From the sequence record MK639187: a stretch of 64,000 nucleotides of DNA; one strand, written 5' to 3'. How positions within the stretch are numbered: position 1 is the first letter of the stretch; the number at the start of each line of letters is the position of its first letter. The stretch is from Shigella phage SSE1. Positions 4,598-53,944 of this stretch are shown one piece after another. Position numbers and translations under genes: made by a program. The notes beneath the pieces were generated by a model, which saw only the letters and a program-made list of their open reading frames with translations, had not been told where the DNA came from and did not search any database.

Positions 4598-4813
4598 ATG
4601 TACAAATTTCGTAAAGGTTTAGCTGATTTTCTTACAACTGTAACGTTCTTTTTGTTTATGGCAGTTGGAGCTATTATTCTTATTCCTTTTACTGTTGTAT
4701 TTTTCGTGATTAGTTTAATTTCTCCGGAAAAGGGATTATCCTCCAGCGAATTCAATGAACGTTTGGGCAAAATTACTAATAAACTGAATTCTGTTCTTGA
4801 TAAAAAGGCTTAA
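4598..4813 (+). CDS. Small membrane protein
   Basis: 71 aa with a long hydrophobic segment. Confidence 0.5.
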   Translation: MYKFRKGLADFLTTVTFFLFMAVGAIILIPFTVVFFVISLISPEKGLSSSEFNERLGKITNKLNSVLDKKA

Positions 4814-5531: not shown

Positions 5532-5560
5532 GTTTACATCCTCAATAGATGTGTTAAGAT
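5532..5560 (+). promoter_or_regulatory. T4-type early promoter (GTTTAC-17-TAAGAT)
   Basis: Seen in sequence, upstream of ORF 5589. Confidence 0.6.
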
Positions 5561-5588
5561 TAAACCATCTACTATAGAGGAAAATAAA

Positions 5589-5771
5589 ATGACAATTGAA
5601 GATAAAGAAATTAAGGTCGACCAGTACTATTCTGTCAACGGTAGTGCAGTACAGATAACCAGAGTTTCAAGCCTGGATGTTTGGTACCGTTCGATCAAAT
5701 ATCCAGAAATTGGTGAAATGCTTTGTGTCCGTGGTATCTTCTGTTCAATTGCGAAGGAAATTAAGCCATGA
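5589..5771 (+). CDS. Hypothetical small protein
   Basis: ATG 5589 after GAGGA and an early promoter; ORF-track extension to 5427 would span the promoter. Confidence 0.5.
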   Translation: MTIEDKEIKVDQYYSVNGSAVQITRVSSLDVWYRSIKYPEIGEMLCVRGIFCSIAKEIKP

Positions 5772-6324: not shown

Positions 6325-6459
6325 ATGAATATCAAACGAATGCTTTTTAAACAGGGATTATATACTTTAAATGCTAATCCAAAGGGTGATACAACTAAAT
6401 GGTCTGTAAATGACTGGATTAAGTTCATCGATGAAAATGGGGCGTGGAACACAAAATGA
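6325..6459 (+). CDS. Hypothetical small protein
   Basis: ATG 6325 after GAGGA. Confidence 0.4.
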   Translation: MNIKRMLFKQGLYTLNANPKGDTTKWSVNDWIKFIDENGAWNTK

Positions 6460-6656
6460 ATCCTGAAAATATTGTGTCATGGCAACTTCGTGAAGAACGC
6501 GCCGAATTCTTTGCCAATATGAAACTCAACGGTGTTGATGATGAAGACTTTTTACGTTGGTTCTGGATTTACAAATACAAAGAATGTCAACATGCTGTGC
6601 TATTGACTTGCGCAGCTATGTACGAAGGCTGGAAAGGCGCTAAAAAGTTCGGTTAA
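6456..6656 (+). CDS. Hypothetical protein
   Basis: ATGA start/stop overlap with previous ORF. Confidence 0.45.
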   Translation: MNPENIVSWQLREERAEFFANMKLNGVDDEDFLRWFWIYKYKECQHAVLLTCAAMYEGWKGAKKFG

Positions 6657-6658
6657 TA

Positions 6659-6697
6659 ATGTACAACGATAGGAAGACATGTTATTATCTTCCTATC
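6659..6697 (+). promoter_or_regulatory. Early promoter with -10 inside inverted repeat ATAGGAAGA/TCTTCCTAT (PeSL-like)
   Basis: ATGTAC...TATTAT flanked by 9-bp inverted repeat. Confidence 0.5.
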
Positions 6698-6719
6698 GTC
6701 TTAAAACGAGGAAAATATC

Positions 6720-6959
6720 ATGGCCCAAGAATTAGATTTTATCAAATTCAAAAAACACCTAGACGTTAAAATTGGGGATTCAATTGTTAGGATTGAGTAT
6801 GACATTTTAACAGATGCTATTACTGTTAGTTGTGACGGAAATAGTTTCAGCTTCGATACAACCGAAAACAAATACCCAATCTATAAAGGCATCTTTGATA
6901 TGGGTGTTGATATTACTCCACGTGATACAAATTACTTACTTTTCATGCTTAAAAAATAG
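6720..6959 (+). CDS. Hypothetical protein
   Basis: 79-aa ORF downstream of promoter cassette 6659-6697. Confidence 0.5.
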   Translation: MAQELDFIKFKKHLDVKIGDSIVRIEYDILTDAITVSCDGNSFSFDTTENKYPIYKGIFDMGVDITPRDTNYLLFMLKK

Positions 6960-6995
6960 TATATAAACTCTTGAGAGCAGAGTATAATTCTCTCA
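6958..6995 (+). promoter_or_regulatory. Promoter cassette copy AAACTCTTGAGAGCAGAGTATAAT (second copy at 51574)
   Basis: TATAAT 6983-6988 inside GAGAG/CTCTC stem; -35 region degenerate. Confidence 0.45.
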
Positions 6996-7025
6996 TTGGA
7001 TAATAAAATAACCGAGGAAAATAAT

Positions 7026-7358
7026 ATGTCTACTAAAATCAAAAACGTAGTTAATTCTTTCGCTTTCGATAAAGTTGTTGCTCTTCTGGAATCCGGCAAT
7101 ATTGTTACTCCTCAAGTTCTTGACGCATGGGAATTCCGTCTTTATGAAATCATGCAAAAACACGACCAAAAAATTGGACGTAATTCTATTCGTGAAATTC
7201 TAGTACAATATATTCTTTCTGAATTTGACGTTGCTGCATTTGGTGTTGAATCTAAAGCTTATCAGAAACATGAAATCTCTGAAAAGACTATCCGTCGTAT
7301 GAAAAATCAACGTAAGAAAAAATTCGTTGACCTGAAAATTGTTAAGGCGGTAAAATGA
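7026..7358 (+). CDS. Hypothetical protein
   Basis: ATG 7026 after GAGGA, downstream of promoter cassette 6958-6995. Confidence 0.5.
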   Translation: MSTKIKNVVNSFAFDKVVALLESGNIVTPQVLDAWEFRLYEIMQKHDQKIGRNSIREILVQYILSEFDVAAFGVESKAYQKHEISEKTIRRMKNQRKKKFVDLKIVKAVK

Positions 7359-7582: not shown

Positions 7583-7672
7583 AATTAACTCGAATCAGTA
7601 TAACTGAAGAAAAGTTTGGTGAATTTTAAGTCAACAACTTTATGAAAGTTATGTATCTTTGATAGTATCTCG

Positions 7673-7716
7673 TGCTTTAAGATAGGTCTCTAAATATTAT
7701 GATATAATAGACCTAT
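7673..7716 (+). promoter_or_regulatory. Promoter region upstream of gp55 with MotA-box-like TGCTTTA and stem-loop ATAGGTCT/AGACCTAT
   Basis: Spacing to the -10 candidates is not canonical. Confidence 0.35.
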
Positions 7717-7737
7717 GAATTGAGCTAAGAGGTACTT

Positions 7738-9039: not shown

Positions 9040-9213
9040 ATGACGAACGACCTGACCTCTGAAAATTTCGATAAAATCCGTAAAGGCAAAGCAGAAAGAA
9101 TGAGACGTTTTAAAGAGTCTTATGATAAAGCTAAAGCCGAAGGAACTATTACATACAAGCCCATTCGATTTAAAAGTTCAAATGAGCCTCTGTATGGTGT
9201 ACTATGTGGATAG
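9040..9213 (+). CDS. Hypothetical small protein
   Basis: 57-aa ORF read by hand, followed by hairpin terminator. Confidence 0.35.
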   Translation: MTNDLTSENFDKIRKGKAERMRRFKESYDKAKAEGTITYKPIRFKSSNEPLYGVLCG

Positions 9214-9238
9214 GAACTCTTCGGAGTTCCTTTTTTGC
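9213..9238 (+). terminator. Intrinsic terminator (GGAACTC-TTCG-GAGTTCC, T6)
   Basis: Seen in sequence, upstream of gp47. Confidence 0.7.
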
Positions 9239-9282
9239 TTTATAAACGGATGATAGAATGAATTAACTAATGAGGAAATAAT

Positions 9283-10302: not shown

Positions 10303-10556
10303 CTTTAGATGAATTTAACAATGCCGGACTCAGCCTTGAAGTTGAAATGGACGTTAAAGATGATGATGGATTCGAGAACACTATCAAGTATTGGATTGAA
10401 CCATTACGCGTTGAAGGCAATGAAGTTAAAGCAGTTCATGTCTGCACCGACTGGGCTGTTGAATTTAGCTTTAATATAATGGACAACGATACTCCTGGCT
10501 CTATTCTTAAAATGGCTGAAGCGTGTATTGAGGATGCGTATAATGACGAAGACTGA
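10299..10556 (+). CDS. Hypothetical acidic protein
   Basis: 85-aa ORF. Confidence 0.45.
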   Translation: MTLDEFNNAGLSLEVEMDVKDDDGFENTIKYWIEPLRVEGNEVKAVHVCTDWAVEFSFNIMDNDTPGSILKMAEACIEDAYNDED

Positions 10557-10782
10557 TTATGAAATCCATCGTCATGAATTTAGTATTGGTGACGGTTATA
10601 TTGGTATCGTTGAATGGACTGAGAATTACGAGGAATCAACTCCTCGTTTCTTTGGAACCATGTATGTTACCTGTGAGTACGCACCAGGTGTTGTCATGTA
10701 TGCAGAACTAGATGAATATTTTGCTGATAGAGATGACATGTTAAAATATGTAGAGGACTTCATTCGAAGAGAATACATATGA
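10543..10782 (+). CDS. Hypothetical protein
   Basis: ORF-track start 10528 is TTG; ATG at 10543. Confidence 0.45.
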   Translation: MTKTDYEIHRHEFSIGDGYIGIVEWTENYEESTPRFFGTMYVTCEYAPGVVMYAELDEYFADRDDMLKYVEDFIRREYI

Positions 10783-15846: not shown

Positions 15847-15860
15847 GGGACTTCGGTCCC
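15847..15860 (+). promoter_or_regulatory. UUCG-tetraloop hairpin in gp43 leader
   Basis: GGGAC-TTCG-GTCCC, no T-run. Confidence 0.4.
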
Positions 15861-28743: not shown

Positions 28744-28744
28744 G

Positions 28745-28793
28745 TTTACTTCTCCAGTAGTTGTGTTATTATAGACCTATCAACTACTGGAGA
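28745..28793 (+). promoter_or_regulatory. Early promoter with -10 inside 12-bp inverted repeat (PeSL-like)
   Basis: GTTTAC-17-TATTAT; CTCCAGTAGTTG/CAACTACTGGAG. Confidence 0.6.
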
Positions 28794-28798
28794 ACAAA

Positions 28799-29116
28799 AT
28801 GAAAACCATCGATTGTAAAGCAGAATTTAAGATTTTTTATCACGGTTCAAGTAGTTCAGCTAACATCGAAAACATGCTTTGTCCTCCTGAAGAAACAGGA
28901 GTTCTGTCTGAAACAGGACGTAAGAAAAACTTGGATCGTGTATTCTTTACCGAAGATATCGGTTTAGCAAAGATTTATGCAGGACGAGCAGCACGCTCTT
29001 ATGGAGGTGAACCACGTCTCTATCGAGTAATTTCTCCGGTAGATGTAGTTCAAATGAATAATACTAAAGGTGCTACAGTTTATCACGCTGAATGGGCATT
29101 TTGCGAGGAAATATGA
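28799..29116 (+). CDS. Hypothetical protein with YHGS motif
   Basis: 105-aa ORF after promoter cassette 28745-28793. Confidence 0.5.
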   Translation: MKTIDCKAEFKIFYHGSSSSANIENMLCPPEETGVLSETGRKKNLDRVFFTEDIGLAKIYAGRAARSYGGEPRLYRVISPVDVVQMNNTKGATVYHAEWAFCEEI

Positions 29117-29301
29117 GCAAATTAACTAAAGTTACTTTTATTGGCTGGTTTAAAAGCGGTGAGATGTTCACTAAAGATATCATGTTATCAGGTGACCGTG
29201 AAGAAATTGAGTGGGTTGCTGTACAACTTGCTGAAGTGAACAACGCATTAGTTAAAGCATTTGTTAATGACGAGAAAGTTTTTGAAGCCGATTTTCGATA
29301 A
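29113..29301 (+). CDS. Hypothetical small protein
   Basis: ATG 29113 after GAGGA. Confidence 0.4.
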   Translation: MSKLTKVTFIGWFKSGEMFTKDIMLSGDREEIEWVAVQLAEVNNALVKAFVNDEKVFEADFR

Positions 29302-29314
29302 TTTTAAAATAACT

Positions 29315-29344
29315 GTTTACAAGCATCGCATACTGTGTTACTAT
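29315..29344 (+). promoter_or_regulatory. T4-type early promoter (GTTTAC...TACTAT)
   Basis: Seen in sequence. Confidence 0.55.
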
Positions 29345-33091: not shown

Positions 33092-33742
33092 GTGAATTAC
33101 CAAAAAATTTACTCGGATTTAATTACAAAAGCTAAATGCCGGCATCTTGGCGGATATAAAGAACGCCATCATATAATTCCTAGATGTATGGGAGGAGCAG
33201 ATGGCAAAAACAATCTTGTTGAGTTAACTGCGCGTGAGCATTTTATAGCTCATAGATTATTAACTAAAATATATCCAGATGTGAGAGGATTGCATTATGC
33301 TGTAAATTTAATGCGATATAATAAAGGTGTTAAATTAACAAGTAGATTAATAGAAACCCTTAAAATCCAAAACTCTGTTCTTTTCTCGGGTGAAAATAAT
33401 CCTAGATATGGCAAGCCGTCATGGATTAAAGGTAAAAAGACTCCAGAAGAAACTAAAGCCAAAATGCGTCTAGCTCATAAAGGTAAAATTATATCCGATG
33501 AAGCCAAGGCTAATATGAGTAAAGCCCGAAAAGGAAGATTTAGCGGTAAAAATTCGCCTCGATATGGTTTACCAAATCCTAGGCGAGGAGAAATATGGAA
33601 TAGTTATGATGCGCTTTATGAATTATGGGTTTATAATAATAGACCTAAGCGCACAAAATTTAATAAAATAGCTGTCAAGGCAGGTTATCCTAATATCTGC
33701 TATAGACATATGATAGAAAACTTCATAAGAAAGGAAAATAAC
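33092..33742 (+). CDS. HNH homing-endonuclease-like domain, reads in frame into gp56 without a stop
   Basis: GTG start; HHIIPRCMGG HNH core; NUMOD3-like repeats (GENNPRYGKP, GKNSPRYGLP). Confidence 0.65.
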
Positions 33743-36189: not shown

Positions 36190-36219
36190 GTGTACAAACT
36201 CTACTGACGATGATATTAT
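36190..36219 (+). promoter_or_regulatory. Early promoter (GTGTAC...TATTAT) upstream of Mod-like gene
   Basis: Seen in sequence. Confidence 0.5.
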
Positions 36220-41575: not shown

Positions 41576-41626
41576 GTTTACTTCTCCTCCGGTTTTGATA
41601 TTATAACCATATCAACCAGAGGAGAA
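41576..41626 (+). promoter_or_regulatory. Early promoter with TCTCCTC/GAGGAGA inverted repeat spanning -10 and the downstream SD
   Basis: GTTTAC-17-TATTAT. Confidence 0.5.
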
Positions 41627-41630
41627 TAAT

Positions 41631-42155
41631 ATGTTAGTTTACCGCGTAGAACGTAGTTTTTGTACTCAACGTGAATCATTACCAGGAATTGCTATCGAAG
41701 ATGGTAAAGCCGTCAGAATTTGGGAAACCTCTTGGAATAAAGAACCTCGTTCGCCGTATGGTTGGTCGGGCACCGACAACTCTGAAGAAACATGGGAGTT
41801 CCTTGATAAGCATGGAATACTCTCAGGTAACTTCTACCATCACGGCGACAACTATAATGTCCCTAATCGTCCTACAGTAAATGAAGACAAACTCCTTGAA
41901 CAAAATATCTTAAGATACTATAGAATTGAGCACACATTTGAATTGAGTGAAGATTGGGCTCAAGGGTTCTATTTTGGATTTGAAAGTGTTGACGCGGTTT
42001 ATGCATGGTTTGATGACCAGGTGGATGTTGAACTCTTGAAAGCTAAAGGATACTACATCGCGGTCTATGAAGCACCTGATTTCATCCTCGGAAGTTGTCA
42101 ATTAATGTTTAGACGTTCATTGGCAGAACAAGTTGATTTTATTTTGCTAAAATGA
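41631..42155 (+). CDS. Hypothetical protein
   Basis: 174-aa ORF after promoter 41576-41604. Confidence 0.5.
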   Translation: MLVYRVERSFCTQRESLPGIAIEDGKAVRIWETSWNKEPRSPYGWSGTDNSEETWEFLDKHGILSGNFYHHGDNYNVPNRPTVNEDKLLEQNILRYYRIEHTFELSEDWAQGFYFGFESVDAVYAWFDDQVDVELLKAKGYYIAVYEAPDFILGSCQLMFRRSLAEQVDFILLK

Positions 42156-43034: not shown

Positions 43035-43460
43035 ATGGCTTTTAAAGGTTTTGAAGTTGGTAAGAAATATCGTATTATCAAAGGACAGGAAGATAATTTC
43101 TTGAGAATTCTTAATACGACTGGTAAGCGTCTTAATACTAATCTGCATACTACTTTATTGTCCAAAGATTTTATTGTGGAAGAGATGATTGGTTACGGCG
43201 TTTCGGTTATTGCTGTAGAAGCCGTAGGCGATTATGGCCGAACTATTCATAGTATGCAAGGTGATATTCTGATTTATGGTGCAGAATTTAAATTCTTTGA
43301 AGAAGTTCCGGAACCAGATACAGCTGTCGATTTCAAAAAAGGCTCTATAGAATTTGTTGATGGTTCGGTGATCGTATCAGGCGATGTGGTCATTACAGTT
43401 AAAAGTGAACAAGGGCGTTTAGCTGCAATTGATGCACTTCAGAAAATTAAATTTAAATAA
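43035..43460 (+). CDS. Hypothetical protein
   Basis: 141-aa ORF followed by hairpin terminator. Confidence 0.5.
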   Translation: MAFKGFEVGKKYRIIKGQEDNFLRILNTTGKRLNTNLHTTLLSKDFIVEEMIGYGVSVIAVEAVGDYGRTIHSMQGDILIYGAEFKFFEEVPEPDTAVDFKKGSIEFVDGSVIVSGDVVITVKSEQGRLAAIDALQKIKFK

Positions 43461-43478
43461 GGGCTTCGGCCCTTTTTG
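43461..43478 (+). terminator. Intrinsic terminator upstream of gp39 (GGGC-TTCG-GCCC, T5)
   Basis: Seen in sequence. Confidence 0.6.
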
Positions 43479-43523
43479 CTTTAGATTTCGGATGATAGAA
43501 TACCTTCATAACGAGGAGACAAC

Positions 43524-51364: not shown

Positions 51365-51565
51365 ATGGCTAAGCTTTTTAAAGATGTTGAAATTGGTGAA
51401 AAATTTGTCCTGAATAATGGTCAGCAGCTTATTCGTGTAGCTTCTATCGCCGGACAAACTCATAACTGTATCGCCCCAACGTGTTGGACTCGATTCTTTA
51501 TTGAAGATGACACTGAATGTTTAACTGTTGAAGAGCTTTTTGAACGTTCTGATATAGCCGAATAA
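51365..51565 (+). CDS. Hypothetical protein
   Basis: 66-aa ORF after promoter cassette 51307-51344. Confidence 0.5.
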   Translation: MAKLFKDVEIGEKFVLNNGQQLIRVASIAGQTHNCIAPTCWTRFFIEDDTECLTVEELFERSDIAE

Positions 51566-51567
51566 AA

Positions 51568-51604
51568 TTGTACAAACTCTTGAGAGCAGAGTATAATGCT
51601 CTCA
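51568..51604 (+). promoter_or_regulatory. Early promoter cassette upstream of ndd (TTGTAC...TATAAT in TGAGAGC/GCTCTCA stem)
   Basis: 24 nt identical to the 6965-6988 copy. Confidence 0.55.
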
Positions 51605-51641
51605 TGGATTACAAAAACATTAATCAATTGAGGAAATTAGC

Positions 51642-52088
51642 ATGTCCAAATATTTAACTCGTAAAGACCTTCTGGCAGTTGGCGGTGAAGTTGTTGCAGT
51701 AGTTCGTAACGGCGAATACGGTTCTGAAGTTTCTAAAGAGTTTCGTTCTCGTGAAGGTTTTTACTTCTTTGTTAAAGGTTCATCTGATTGGCGACAAGTA
51801 GCAGCACGATTCTTTGTAGGACGTCAACGTTCTAAACAAGGGTTGGATGCAATTCTTTCTCACATTCGTCAAGGCCGTTCGCAACTAGCCCGTACTATGG
51901 GCACTAACAATATTGAATATGATGTAATCTTTGTTGCAGCTAAGAACATGAAACCACTGACCACTGGTTACGGTAAAGGACAATTGGCTCTGGCATTCAC
52001 TCGCAACCATACATCAGAATATCAAACACTCACTGAAATGAACCGTCTTCTGGCAGATAATTTCAAATTCATTCTGCAGAGTTACTAA
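51642..52088 (+). CDS. ndd: Nucleoid disruption protein Ndd
   Basis: 148 aa; [11 protein letters not shown] and [20 protein letters not shown] recognised as Ndd-like. Confidence 0.85.
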
Positions 52089-53876: not shown

Positions 53877-53905
53877 GTTTACATGTGCTTCAAACATGGT
53901 ATTAT
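53877..53905 (+). promoter_or_regulatory. Early promoter upstream of motA (GTTTAC-17-TATTAT)
   Basis: Seen in sequence. Confidence 0.55.
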
Positions 53906-53944
53906 AGACCTATCAAAACAAAACAACCAAATTGGAGAAATAAA

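Follow-up and report, generated by a model that had tools for sequence, protein, structure and literature searches.

Near-identical intergenic repeats in Shigella phage SSE1 are probably members of a dispersed T4-type early-promoter/hairpin family homogenized within genomes

We analyzed a 64,000-nucleotide stretch of the genome of Shigella phage SSE1 (MK639187), an RB69-like (Mosigvirus) phage of the T4 type; this whole stretch is referred to below as the window. It contains two copies of an intergenic element, one at positions 6965–6988 (locus A) and the other at 51574–51597 (locus B). The two promoter/hairpin elements are probably members of a dispersed T4-type early-promoter/hairpin family, of the kind called PeSL, whose copies have been homogenized within genomes. 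The near-identical pair is real but largely ordinary for the T4-type phage group.

A search of the window with the 24-mer AAACTCTTGAGAGCAGAGTATAAT found exact matches at these two sites, both on the plus strand, and allowing up to three mismatches returned the same two sites only. No occurrence was seen in 100 dinucleotide-preserving shuffles, the chance expectation being 0. The 24-mer is followed by a mismatch (T6989 versus G51598) and then by seven bases, CTCTCAT, that are identical at both loci, and a weaker likeness extends to 57 nt at 81% identity (6952–7008 versus 51561–51617; repeat family D5). An earlier sequence-only reading of this DNA had described just such a repeat, with seven further matches past one mismatch, and in this it was correct. 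It had also held that the flanking genes differ, naming homology between them as the finding that would overturn its view. BLASTP comparison of the flanking proteins gave E=1.6 for the downstream pair and E=0.11 for the upstream pair. The proteins are unrelated, and an ordinary segmental duplication is thereby ruled out. Also rejected was a deletion between the two copies as the cause of the 121-kb phiE142 record, in which the copies are likewise 44.6 kb apart.

Locus B lies between the stop codon (51563–51565) of an ndd.1 homolog (51365–51565, plus strand; phrog_2183, 45% identity to T4 ndd.1) and the ATG of ndd at 51642, in a region with the A/T-rich tract aataaaatt. The assignment of this copy to the upstream region of ndd was confirmed: it lies 44 nt before the start of ndd (51642–52088, plus strand; PF06591, E=4e-89), whose Shine–Dalgarno (SD) sequence, GAGGAAA, is at 51630–51636. 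The gene content is unchanged, both ndd.1 and ndd being conserved. The promoter (51569–51597, plus strand) consists of a −35 hexamer TGTACA (51569–51574), a 17-nt spacer and a −10 hexamer TATAAT (51592–51597), and agrees with the σ70 consensus at 10 of 12 positions. Its sequence is identical to that of RB69 Pe:165022 (score 18.2), which, like Pe:42515 (score 8.9), the RB69 variant of locus A, is a predicted early promoter (Nolan et al. 2006, PMC1524935, Additional file 3). The term "promoter cassette" was therefore apt. A hairpin (51581–51604, plus strand) is built around the −10 hexamer, with arms at 51581–51588 (TGAGAGCA) and 51597–51604 (TGCTCTCA) and the loop GAGTATAA; its folding energy is −13.0 kcal/mol as RNA (z −3.6) and −7.2 kcal/mol as DNA. 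Judged by the −10 spacing, transcription would start at about 51604, at the end of the 3' arm. Just beyond, at 51606–51616 on the plus strand, is a RegB/S1-like tract, GGATTACAAAA, that matches the consensus for such sites at 10 of 11 positions when the U variant is allowed.

At locus A the intergenic region runs from the stop codon at 6957–6959 to the ATG at 7026 of a gp55.2 homolog (stop at 7358, plus strand; DUF7570, 75% identity to T4 gp55.2), which has the SD sequence GAGG at 7014–7017. The A/T-rich tract ttaaaaaatag and the −35 position fall within 6944–6965 on the plus strand. The −35 hexamer there, TATATA (6960–6965), is two substitutions removed from TTTACA, and the promoter scan did not call it. 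The shared 24-mer (6965–6988, plus strand) comprises the spacer, the 5' arm and the −10 hexamer TATAAT (6983–6988). The arms of the hairpin (6972–6995, plus strand) are at 6972–6979 (TGAGAGCA) and 6988–6995 (TTCTCTCA), with a mismatch between C6978 and T6989. The hairpin is a weakened copy, since its RNA fold is worth −5.9 kcal/mol and is no better than those of shuffled sequences (z −0.9). It is followed at 6998–7008 (plus strand) by the tract GGATAATAAAA, distinct from the SD sequence of 55.2, which fits the strong-site consensus GG*A(G/U)RAYARAA. By its −35 sequence, TATATA, and its one broken stem pair, locus A is a partly decayed copy. It may be weak or inactive, given that it has no recognizable −35 hexamer and a hairpin no better than shuffles.

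The surroundings of locus A suggest how such decay could have come about. A gp55.3 homolog (6444–6656, plus strand; C-terminus ...MYEGWKGAKKFG) has a counterpart that in T4 and Dhakavirus directly precedes the element upstream of 55.2: the gene order is 55.3–hairpin–55.2 in T4 and 55.3–cassette–55.2 in Dhakavirus. Mosigvirus adds a 79-aa ORFan (6720–6959, plus strand; phrog_11314, a homolog of RB69ORF075c), absent at this position from T4 and Dhakavirus and bracketed by two promoter–hairpin elements. The first of these (6660–6699, plus strand) is a separate element of a different sequence type that corresponds to RB69 Pe:42816. It consists of TGTACA (6660–6665), 17 nt and TG-n-TATTAT, with the −10 hexamer at 6683–6688 set inside a 12-bp inverted repeat (6666–6677/6688–6699; −17.6 kcal/mol, z −2.2). 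Plausibly, locus A has decayed because the inserted upstream ORFan brings its own strong promoter.

We also considered other classes of promoter. TTGAGA was rejected as a −35 hexamer, as it is only 5 nt from TATAAT; at the correct 17-nt spacing, locus B has TGTACA and locus A has TATATA, and locus A conforms to the T4/PST-type early-promoter pattern at the −10 position only. The box of MotA-dependent middle promoters ((a/t)(a/t)(a/t)TGCTTtA, centered at −30 and 11–13 nt before the −10) is absent from both loci, where the −30 region reads AAACTCTTGAG; the sole GCTTA, at 6946–6950, is 32 nt before the −10. Neither locus has the late promoter motif TATAAATA at the right place. Promoter activity, start site and early timing are proposed from the consensus and from published predictions.

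The sequence-only reading had spoken of a near-identical pair; the repeat is real, but it does not represent a two-copy event, since the family has four copies per genome. In pEK20, the closest genome, these are at 4785, 32825, 98426 and 128540. The reading also lacked the two further copies that this type of genome has outside the window, the inverted repeat around the −10 and the poor −35 of locus A. The cassette is matched in 710–740 Tevenvirinae records, at three to four places per Mosigvirus genome, and five or more Tevenvirinae genera have related copies, among them the one upstream of T4 motB; outside Mosigvirus there are one to four copies per genome. (For the ndd loci in IMG/VR, a search with a single protein yielded three close relatives only, and an alignment query was then used.) The order of parts is an A/T-rich tract, a −35 hexamer (G)T(T/G)TAC, a 17-bp spacer starting with AAACTCTTG, and the −10 TATAAT with an 8-bp inverted repeat around it. 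Next comes a GGA(G/U)–A-rich tract, also conserved, and after it an early gene with its SD sequence and ATG, in the present case 55.2 or ndd. In phage wV7 the T4-type relative that precedes motB carries the annotation "promoter".

The hairpin is conserved as a structure. Searching for AAACTC-N8-AGAGTATAAT, and taking stem length as the uninterrupted pairs counted from the loop end, we found a 6–7-bp stem in 34 distinct matches in T4 context, with one exception, locus A of the window, where the count fails at the broken loop-closing pair while 6 bp persist further out. The 28 matches in unrelated contexts had stem scores of 0–1. Across 24 distinct copies, 96.4% of cells were paired, compared with 36–55% for slid partners, and four of the eight pairs had changed on both sides (27 cells), giving a score that none of 500 shuffles reached. 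The wobbles within the helix were all G.U on the sense strand, and the fold therefore points to the sense RNA. No Rfam 15 covariance model matched at the gathering threshold anywhere in the window.

This pattern bears on the idea that the inverted repeat is a dyad operator, over the −10, for a dimeric DNA-binding protein of phage or host, such as a factor that shuts off early promoters. On that account co-evolution of site and protein would make the arms differ between genera, and copies within a genome would be alike without any exchange of DNA. The arms are indeed often common to the loci of one genome and different between genera, the DNA fold of locus B is symmetric on both strands, and the Hinton review calls the mechanism of early-promoter shut-off in T4 unresolved. 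An operator is nonetheless very unlikely. Arms differ within single genomes (GAGAGC and AGGAGC in pEK20, GGGGTC and GGGAGC in VR20, three types in Dhakavirus). G.U is tolerated on the sense strand only (17 cells, versus 2 of C.A at the terminal pair), which agrees with base pairing within a single strand but not with a duplex site that is symmetric. In addition, orthologous positions in T4 and CC31-like phages keep a hairpin whose arms and loop have nothing in common with those of the cassette, a UUCG tetraloop among them.

Comparison among copies supports exchange independent of coding sequence, for copies are closer within a genome than to the orthologs of other genera. Over about 44 nt, a span that allows few substitutions per comparison, the VR20 ndd and motB copies differ at 1 position and are 8–10 differences from their orthologs. 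The ndd copy of the window, meanwhile, differs from its 55.2 copy at 6 positions, from the copy at the Mosigvirus 197-aa gene at 5, and from ndd orthologs at 10–16. The ndd 5' UTR, immediately downstream, is orthologous between Mosigvirus and Dhakavirus, but the cassette core is not. The earlier suggestion that the cassette moved or recombined independently thus holds insofar as it implies exchange between copies. It does not hold as recent transposition to a new gene, because the cassette has long been attached to ndd and to 55.2, an arrangement that different genera have in common. Homogenization is not universal: arms still differ among the Dhakavirus copies at ndd, 55.2 and a 160-aa gene, and those of the fourth copy in Mosigvirus are AGGAGC/GCTCCT. 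At locus A no clean homology breakpoint was found at the cassette between the window and pEK20, which have the same flanking genes and a locally diverged 45 nt; the haplotypes there look mosaic in a patchy way, a chimeric look that point mutation could also give. Indels beside promoter elements lend weak support, as only two of six differences between the window and pEK20 are no further than about 30 nt from a called promoter. We propose that the near-identity stems from common descent of the cassette and from homogenization within the Mosigvirus lineage, presumably by gene conversion or other recombination, and not from gene duplication.

Old duplicates might instead have been kept or made alike solely by strong selection on promoter function, with no exchange at all. 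No genus departs from the −10 or from the AAACTC spacer, and the framework TTGAC-AAACTC-N8-AGAGTATAAT occurs in unrelated phage contigs, so that parts of the motif can recur independently. Against this, the arm sequence is free of promoter constraint: one framework accommodates at least seven arm variants, and the TTGAC promoters of unrelated contexts are stemless. Moreover, the arm pair GAGAGC/GCTCTC is present at three Mosigvirus loci and in no other genus, the VR20 copies are far closer to each other than to their orthologs (1 of 44 positions against 8–10), and identical double compensatory substitutions repeated at unlinked loci are improbable. We regard selection without exchange as having little chance of being correct.

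Host σ70-RNA polymerase should initiate right at the end of the 3' arm, and the cassette's own transcript would lack the hairpin for that reason. RNA reading through from upstream promoters, in contrast, would have the upstream cistron end in a stable hairpin, worth about −13 kcal/mol, and this hairpin would most likely act as an attenuator or as a structure protecting the 3' end between cistrons. Sequestration of the SD sequence, by the hairpin or by long-range pairing, was looked for in 151-nt folds, which gave nothing beyond the local hairpin relative to shuffles. A scan for intrinsic (rho-independent) terminators found none at locus A or B: no U-tract is present, the stem being followed by TTGGATAAT or TGGATTACA, and terminator activity of the stem is accordingly doubtful here. 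It is extremely improbable that the element is an ordinary rho-independent terminator resembling a promoter by chance. At the 55.2 position T4 does have a canonical UUCG hairpin with a T-run, and efficient termination was reported for a PeSL stem-loop, in an assay that covered one stem-loop of RB49; but a perfect TATAAT with a correctly spaced (G)T(T/G)TAC has been kept in about 30 independent contexts.

Two new leads emerge: the hairpin persists in lineages that lack the promoter, and a RegB-like tract, GGA(G/U)NAYARAA, always follows it. GGA(G/T) comes after the stem in all 24 family members. The consensus for strong RegB sites is GG*AGRAYARAA (PMC3014915), and the tracts of both loci, putative RegB/S1 sites that are intergenic and outside the predicted hairpin, fit the pattern GGA(G/U)-R-A-Y-A-R-A-A. 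The window has five such motifs on the plus strand and none on the minus strand, about one being expected; two are at the cassettes and two are −10 regions of middle promoters. A CDS for a RegB-domain protein is annotated in pEK20 at 108845–109144, outside the region corresponding to this window. In promoter-less lineages, ndd and 55.2 are likewise preceded, with no change in distance, by a hairpin and then (U)UGGA(G/U): T4 ndd has GGCCG-N-CGGCC and TTGGAGTAGAAAA, T4 55.2 has a UUCG terminator and GGATAATAAAA, and CC31-like ndd has GGGCC-UUCG-GGCCC.

These observations raise the possibility, which we hold to be rather unlikely, that the conserved unit is the hairpin with its GGA(G/U)–A-rich tract, serving as an RNA-processing or insulator module, and that the promoter is a secondary graft in some lineages. 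In its favor are the retention of both parts by T4 and CC31-like phages, the constancy of GGA(G/T), its agreement with the consensus, the strand bias and the RegB-domain protein of a relative. On the other side, a short, A-rich motif is concerned, in a genome that is itself rich in A/T; −10 regions of middle promoters account for two of the five matches in the window; the regB of RB69 is reported to be divergent; and the tract may serve translation instead, as an S1-binding or standby element. A fuller version, which we offer only as an unlikely speculation from sequence comparison, is that a hairpin with a GGA(G/U)RAYARAA site marks cistron boundaries on polycistronic early RNA of T4-type phages as the stable unit, with a promoter built around it in several lineages, its −10 in the loop, and the copies gene-converted within genomes. 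If this were true, the upstream message would keep a protective hairpin at its 3' end after a RegB cut, while the downstream message would acquire a 5'-OH end and so be marked for decay by PNK and RNase G/E; primary transcripts would start where processed read-through RNA begins, with the RegB site at their extreme 5' end. Confirmation of the hairpin and RegB-like core would link early-promoter architecture to the rapid and incompletely understood inactivation of T4 early messages.

Known T4 systems offer several parallels. In T4 genes e, soc, 49 and I-TevI the promoter lies within a hairpin that gates translation (PMC3014915). As with the cassette, RNA started upstream folds and RNA from the internal promoter does not, but theirs is a late promoter whose 3' arm hides the SD sequence or start codon, whereas the promoter of the cassette is early. 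No direct block of translation is predicted for the cassette, because the SD sequence is separated from the 3' arm by about 26 nt at locus B and 19 nt at locus A. Other promoters in the window do follow the SD-sequestering pattern (repeat family D1). The RegB/S1 sites of T4 early mRNAs are likewise similar by sequence, the cassette tracts matching at 10–11 of 11 positions with the documented GGAU variant allowed, and they share an intergenic position on early transcripts, an unpaired state and an A-rich 3' side. Most known strong sites, however, are the SD sequence of the gene itself, whereas the putative sites of the cassettes are 14–24 nt upstream of a separate one. Intercistronic C(UUCG)G hairpins of T4 were reportedly described by Tuerk et al. 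in 1988; these have a tetraloop and no embedded promoter. Like the cassette, they are stable, and a hairpin of this sort takes up its intercistronic position in front of 55.2 in T4 and in front of ndd in CC31-like phages, but the cassette has an 8-nt loop that holds most of the −10.

With the early promoters (Pe) of T4-type phages the cassette shares the GTTTAC-type −35, the 17-nt spacer, the −10 TATAAT and the A-rich upstream tract, and it has its whole framework in common with the T4 motB promoter. The published descriptions of Pe, in the portions available to us, concern promoters only and do not discuss the bracketing hairpin, its covariation or the relation among copies.

Finally, the cassette belongs to the already described class of PeSLs, the promoter-early stem-loops of T4-type phages (Arbiol et al. 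2010, PMC2839356; Comeau et al. 2014, PMC4122927), which consist of an A/T-rich region, a T4/PST early promoter TTTACW-N17-TAYWAT and a stem-loop mostly between the −35 and −10 or overlapping the −10. The copies in the window are intergenic with an A/T-rich tract, an early promoter (locus B) and a stem-loop over the promoter; like PeSLs, they occur many times per genome, lie beside an ORFan insertion (locus A) and are proposed to recombine with one another. They cannot form viable mini-circles or deletions of the kind described for neighboring PeSLs, because 44.6 kb with many genes for replication and recombination lies between them. Composite promoter/stem-loop cassettes dispersed over the early regions of T4-type phages, and thought to be portable recombination linkers, have been described before. 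For annotation, near-identical intergenic repeats in T4-like genomes are to be read as regulatory cassettes; they should not be taken for remnants of gene duplication or of mobile elements. PeSLs were published for RB49/phi1, T4/PST and KVP40/nt-1, and not for RB69-like phages, and they were grouped by architecture, whereas here one sequence subfamily is traced through five genera, adding comparative evidence for compensatory upkeep of the stem and for concerted evolution of copies that stay attached to the same genes.

The sequence-only reading had reported two near-identical promoter cassettes 44 kb apart with different flanking genes, and the repeated stretch is real and non-random. The 24-mer AAACTCTTGAGAGCAGAGTATAAT occurs exactly at 6965–6988 (locus A, upstream of a gp55.2 homolog) and at 51574–51597 (locus B, upstream of ndd), both on the + strand. 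With up to three mismatches allowed, no further match was found in the window, and the 24-mer had 0 occurrences in 100 dinucleotide-preserving shuffles. As had been noted, a single mismatch (T6989 versus G51598) is followed by seven more matching bases, CTCTCAT, in both copies; lower similarity surrounds both loci (57 nt, 81% identity). The window belongs to a T4-type coliphage of the RB69 group, genus Mosigvirus, with its early genes on the + strand, and the close relative vB_EcoM-pEK20 (pEK20) is 96–100% identical to it across most of its length. Locus A lies between a 79-amino-acid ORFan (phrog_11314, 6720–6959) and the gp55.2 homolog (DUF7570, ATG at 7026, 75% identical to T4 gp55.2), whereas locus B is preceded by an ndd.1 homolog and followed by ndd. 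Comparing the flanking proteins of the two loci pair by pair showed no relationship (E = 1.6 and 0.11), so that the claim of differing flanking genes survives a direct check for homology.

At locus B an A/T-rich tract precedes a promoter, as had been proposed, composed of TGTACA, a 17-nt spacer and TATAAT (10 of 12 matches to the σ70 consensus); the ndd Shine–Dalgarno (SD) sequence (GAGGAAA) and ATG lie 33–45 nt past the −10. The block common to both copies is an inverted repeat, in which, at locus B, TGAGAGCA (51581–51588) pairs with TGCTCTCA (51597–51604) around an 8-nt loop, GAGTATAA, that contains most of the −10. Folding gave −13.0 kcal/mol (z = −3.6) for this hairpin as RNA and −7.2 kcal/mol as DNA, on either strand. 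Transcription starting at the usual 7-nt distance from the −10 would begin near 51604, where the 3′ arm ends. RNA made from the cassette itself would in that case be without the hairpin, which would be present only in RNA arriving from upstream. Locus A has the same core, with TATATA at the −35 position and a T instead of G right after TATAAT, which breaks the loop-closing C-G pair; its hairpin energy is down to −5.9 kcal/mol (z = −0.9). Given this −35, the broken pair and the low hairpin energy, locus A is a weakened copy of the cassette.

The two copies belong to a larger family. In a BLAST search of 50,697 phage genomes, either 40-mer matched 710–740 Tevenvirinae records, at three to four places in each Mosigvirus genome and at one in T4/T2-type genomes, upstream of motB, where the copy in phage wV7 is annotated "promoter." The four copies in pEK20 lie upstream of ndd (identical to locus B), of 55.2, of a 197-aa gene (98.4 kb) and of a 99-aa gene in the pseT region (32.8 kb), the window covering only the ndd and 55.2 ones. 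The interpretation in the sequence-only reading is partly right: these are promoter cassettes, but not just a pair, as there are four per genome. A scan of IMG/VR for AAACTC-N8-AGAGTATAAT yielded 63 distinct contexts, in which stem length was counted as uninterrupted pairs from the loop end, N8 against the bases after TATAAT. The stem measured 6–7 bp in all 34 T4-context matches except one, the window's locus A, where the count stops at the broken loop-closing pair and 6 bp still pair further out. The other 28 contexts scored 0–1; among them were six TTGAC-type promoters of unrelated phages with the same framework, a built-in negative control. Three IMG/VR contigs of non-T4-like context (L036, L068 and L070) carry the framework with a CTAGCAGG/CCTGCT stem and then a T-run, suggesting that an unrelated phage group has a promoter placed within a terminator loop.

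The arms of the stem come in at least seven variants (GAGAGC/GCTCTC, GGGACC/GGTCCY, GGGGTC/GACCCC, GGGAGC/GCTCCY, GGGGCC/GGTCCC, GAGGAC/GTCCTC and AGGAGC/GCTCCT). Across 24 distinct aligned members 96.4% of stem cells were paired, as against 36–55% with a slid partner, and the window's locus A supplied the sole unpaired inner cell. Changes on both sides were seen in four of the eight stem pairs (27 cells), and none of 500 shuffles reached the observed covariation score. All in-helix wobble pairs (17 cells) are G·U on the sense strand, which argues that the folding molecule is the sense strand, most simply RNA, rather than a symmetric duplex site. No Rfam family matches.

Family members precede genes of no fewer than seven unrelated families, three of them Ndd, MotB and gp55.2 and four without a known function. 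The cassette is found at ndd in Mosigvirus, Gaprivervirus (VR20) and Kanagawavirus (PEi20), at 55.2 in Mosigvirus and Dhakavirus, and at motB in Tequatrovirus and Gaprivervirus; judging from its presence at a given gene in several genera, the association of cassette with gene is old. When regions upstream of ndd and 55.2 were sampled by protein homology, with the motif not used for selection, a hairpin followed by a (T)TGGA(G/T)-A-rich sequence stood in the same place in every lineage sampled; the promoter, unlike the hairpin, did not. T4-type phages, for which the T4 sequences were inspected directly, have GGCCG-loop-CGGCC without a −35 upstream of ndd and a UUCG-tetraloop terminator upstream of 55.2. 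Upstream of ndd, CC31-like phages have GGGCC-UUCG-GGCCC and Dhakavirus a diverged promoter-hairpin, TTTACAACCTCGAGAATCATGTTATAATGGTTCTCG.

The 3′ arm is followed at locus A by the tract GGATAATAAAA and at locus B by GGATTACAAAA; the counterparts are GGAGTATAAAA for T4 motB, GGATAACAAAA for Dhakavirus ndd and GGAGCACAAAA for VR20. All 24 aligned members have GGA(G/T) after the stem. As sequence matches, these tracts fit the consensus of strong RegB/S1 cleavage sites, GG*AG(/U)RAYARAA (PMC3014915), and they are separate from the SD, which is further downstream. A relaxed RegB motif occurs five times on the + strand of the window and never on the − strand (about one expected): twice at the cassettes, once as an SD and twice overlapping middle-promoter −10 boxes. 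Hairpin and GGA(G/T) tract are retained in lineages that have no promoter at these positions, so the stable unit may be an RNA module, and we put forward an RNA boundary module as a hypothesis only.

The sequence-only reading had also suggested that the cassette moved or recombined independently of coding sequence, and of this the exchange among copies gains support. Within a stretch of about 44 nt, six positions separate the window's ndd cassette from its 55.2 cassette and five separate it from the Mosigvirus copy at the 197-aa gene, versus 10–16 for the ndd cassettes of other genera. In VR20 the ndd and motB cassettes differ at one position from each other and at 8–10 from their orthologs. 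The GAGAGC/GCTCTC arms are common to three Mosigvirus loci and appear in no other genus, and the ndd 5′ UTR just downstream is clearly orthologous between Mosigvirus and Dhakavirus whereas the cassette core is not. This greater likeness of paralogs than of orthologs, confined to the core, is the mark of concerted evolution through conversion or recombination and supports exchange as what keeps the copies alike. Not every copy has been homogenized: the fourth in Mosigvirus and those of Dhakavirus retain their own arms. Locus A is polymorphic among Mosigviruses otherwise 95–99% identical: CGAGAGA...TCTCTCG in RB69, TGAGAGA...TCTCTCG in phiE142, GAGAGC...GCTCTC with a 2-nt insertion in pEK20, GGGAGC...GCTCTC in a metagenomic contig and GAGAGC...TCTCTC in the window. 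At ≥99% identity the ndd copy is present in 155 records, versus only five for the window's locus A. The left half of that copy resembles the ndd type and its right half the RB69 type; the patchy, mosaic pattern is compatible with conversion but no proof of it.

Gene order also varies at locus A. T4 has 55.3, hairpin, 55.2, and Dhakavirus 55.3, cassette, 55.2; Mosigvirus has two further parts between 55.3 and the cassette that precedes 55.2, first a different promoter-hairpin element and then the ORFan. That element (6660–6699; TGTACA-17-TGtTATTAT in a 12-bp inverted repeat, 6666–6677/6688–6699; hairpin −17.6 kcal/mol) is unrelated in sequence to the cassette. The ORFan, a homolog of RB69ORF075c, is thus bracketed by two promoter-hairpin elements, and having a strong promoter of its own may be why the cassette downstream of it is relaxed. 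Two of the six differences between the window and pEK20 are gene-sized indels abutting early promoters, which lends weak support to shuffling at such sites. These indels, at 29293 and 36156 (204 bp and 504 bp, in pEK20 only), end 22–31 nt before two early promoters, at 29316 and at 36191, of which the second has GTGTACAAACTCT in common with the cassette family. At 7659–7722 pEK20 has 185 bp extra; shortly after this, in front of gene 55, an 8-bp inverted repeat (arms ATAGGTCT/AGACCTAT) has TATAAT in its loop but no obvious −35.

Other features were seen in passing. An early-promoter family, GTTTAC...TATTATAGACCTATCAA (5532–5589, 28744–28801, 41576–41633 and 53877–53934), has a −10-bracketing inverted repeat whose 3′ arm contains the SD (the stem at 28754–28767/28785–28798, of 14 bp, is one example); the SD would be hidden in read-through RNA from upstream but not in RNA started at the promoter. 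UUCG-tetraloop terminator hairpins lie at 9203–9260 and 43445–43500 and also at 15847, 28288 and 49967; in two cases a MotA box (TGCTTTA) and a −10 of TAGAAT come next, both with GGATGATAGAAT, a terminator-plus-middle-promoter arrangement. An HNH/NUMOD3 homing-endonuclease-like ORF (33092–33730) is inserted directly upstream of gene 56 (dCTPase, dUTPase_2 domain) in one reading frame with it and with no stop codon between; the 643-bp insertion, absent from pEK20, is flanked by repeated GAAAGGA (the SD). Where pEK20 has a MobD-like homing endonuclease (~830 bp) between genes 47 and 46, the window carries an unrelated 84-aa ORF (10528–10782). A 55-nt direct repeat within coding sequence (1024–1078 versus 1628–1682, spacing 604 nt, 78% identity) points to small paralogous genes in tandem.

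The cassette's anatomy fits that of the promoter-early stem-loops (PeSLs) of T4-type phages. By definition a PeSL comprises an A/T-rich region and an early promoter, with the consensus TTTACW-N17-TAYWAT in T4/PST; its stem-loop in most cases lies between the two promoter boxes or overlaps the −10, and SD and ATG come next (Arbiol et al. 2010, PMC2839356; Comeau et al. 2014, PMC4122927). PeSLs were proposed there as terminators or attenuators and as recombination linkers. The exchange among copies that we infer accords with that proposal; the canonical terminator form does not apply to the window's cassettes, as no U-tract follows the hairpin at locus A or locus B. In the papers on PeSLs and RB69 promoters cited here, we did not find one sequence subfamily traced across genera, formal covariation or a paralog-versus-ortholog comparison of cassettes. 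An ORFan between two such elements is an arrangement described for PeSLs (Arbiol et al. 2010, PMC2839356) and is the one at locus A. RB69 has an ndd cassette identical to the window's and a variant of locus A; both were listed among its predicted early promoters, the first as Pe:165022 (score 18.2) and the second as Pe:42515 (score 8.9), and the element upstream of ORF075c is Pe:42816 (Nolan et al. 2006, PMC1524935). From these listings and the PeSL anatomy, the sites are therefore already predicted promoters of a described class, and with this element an RB69-like phage supplies one more member of the known PeSL/early-promoter class.
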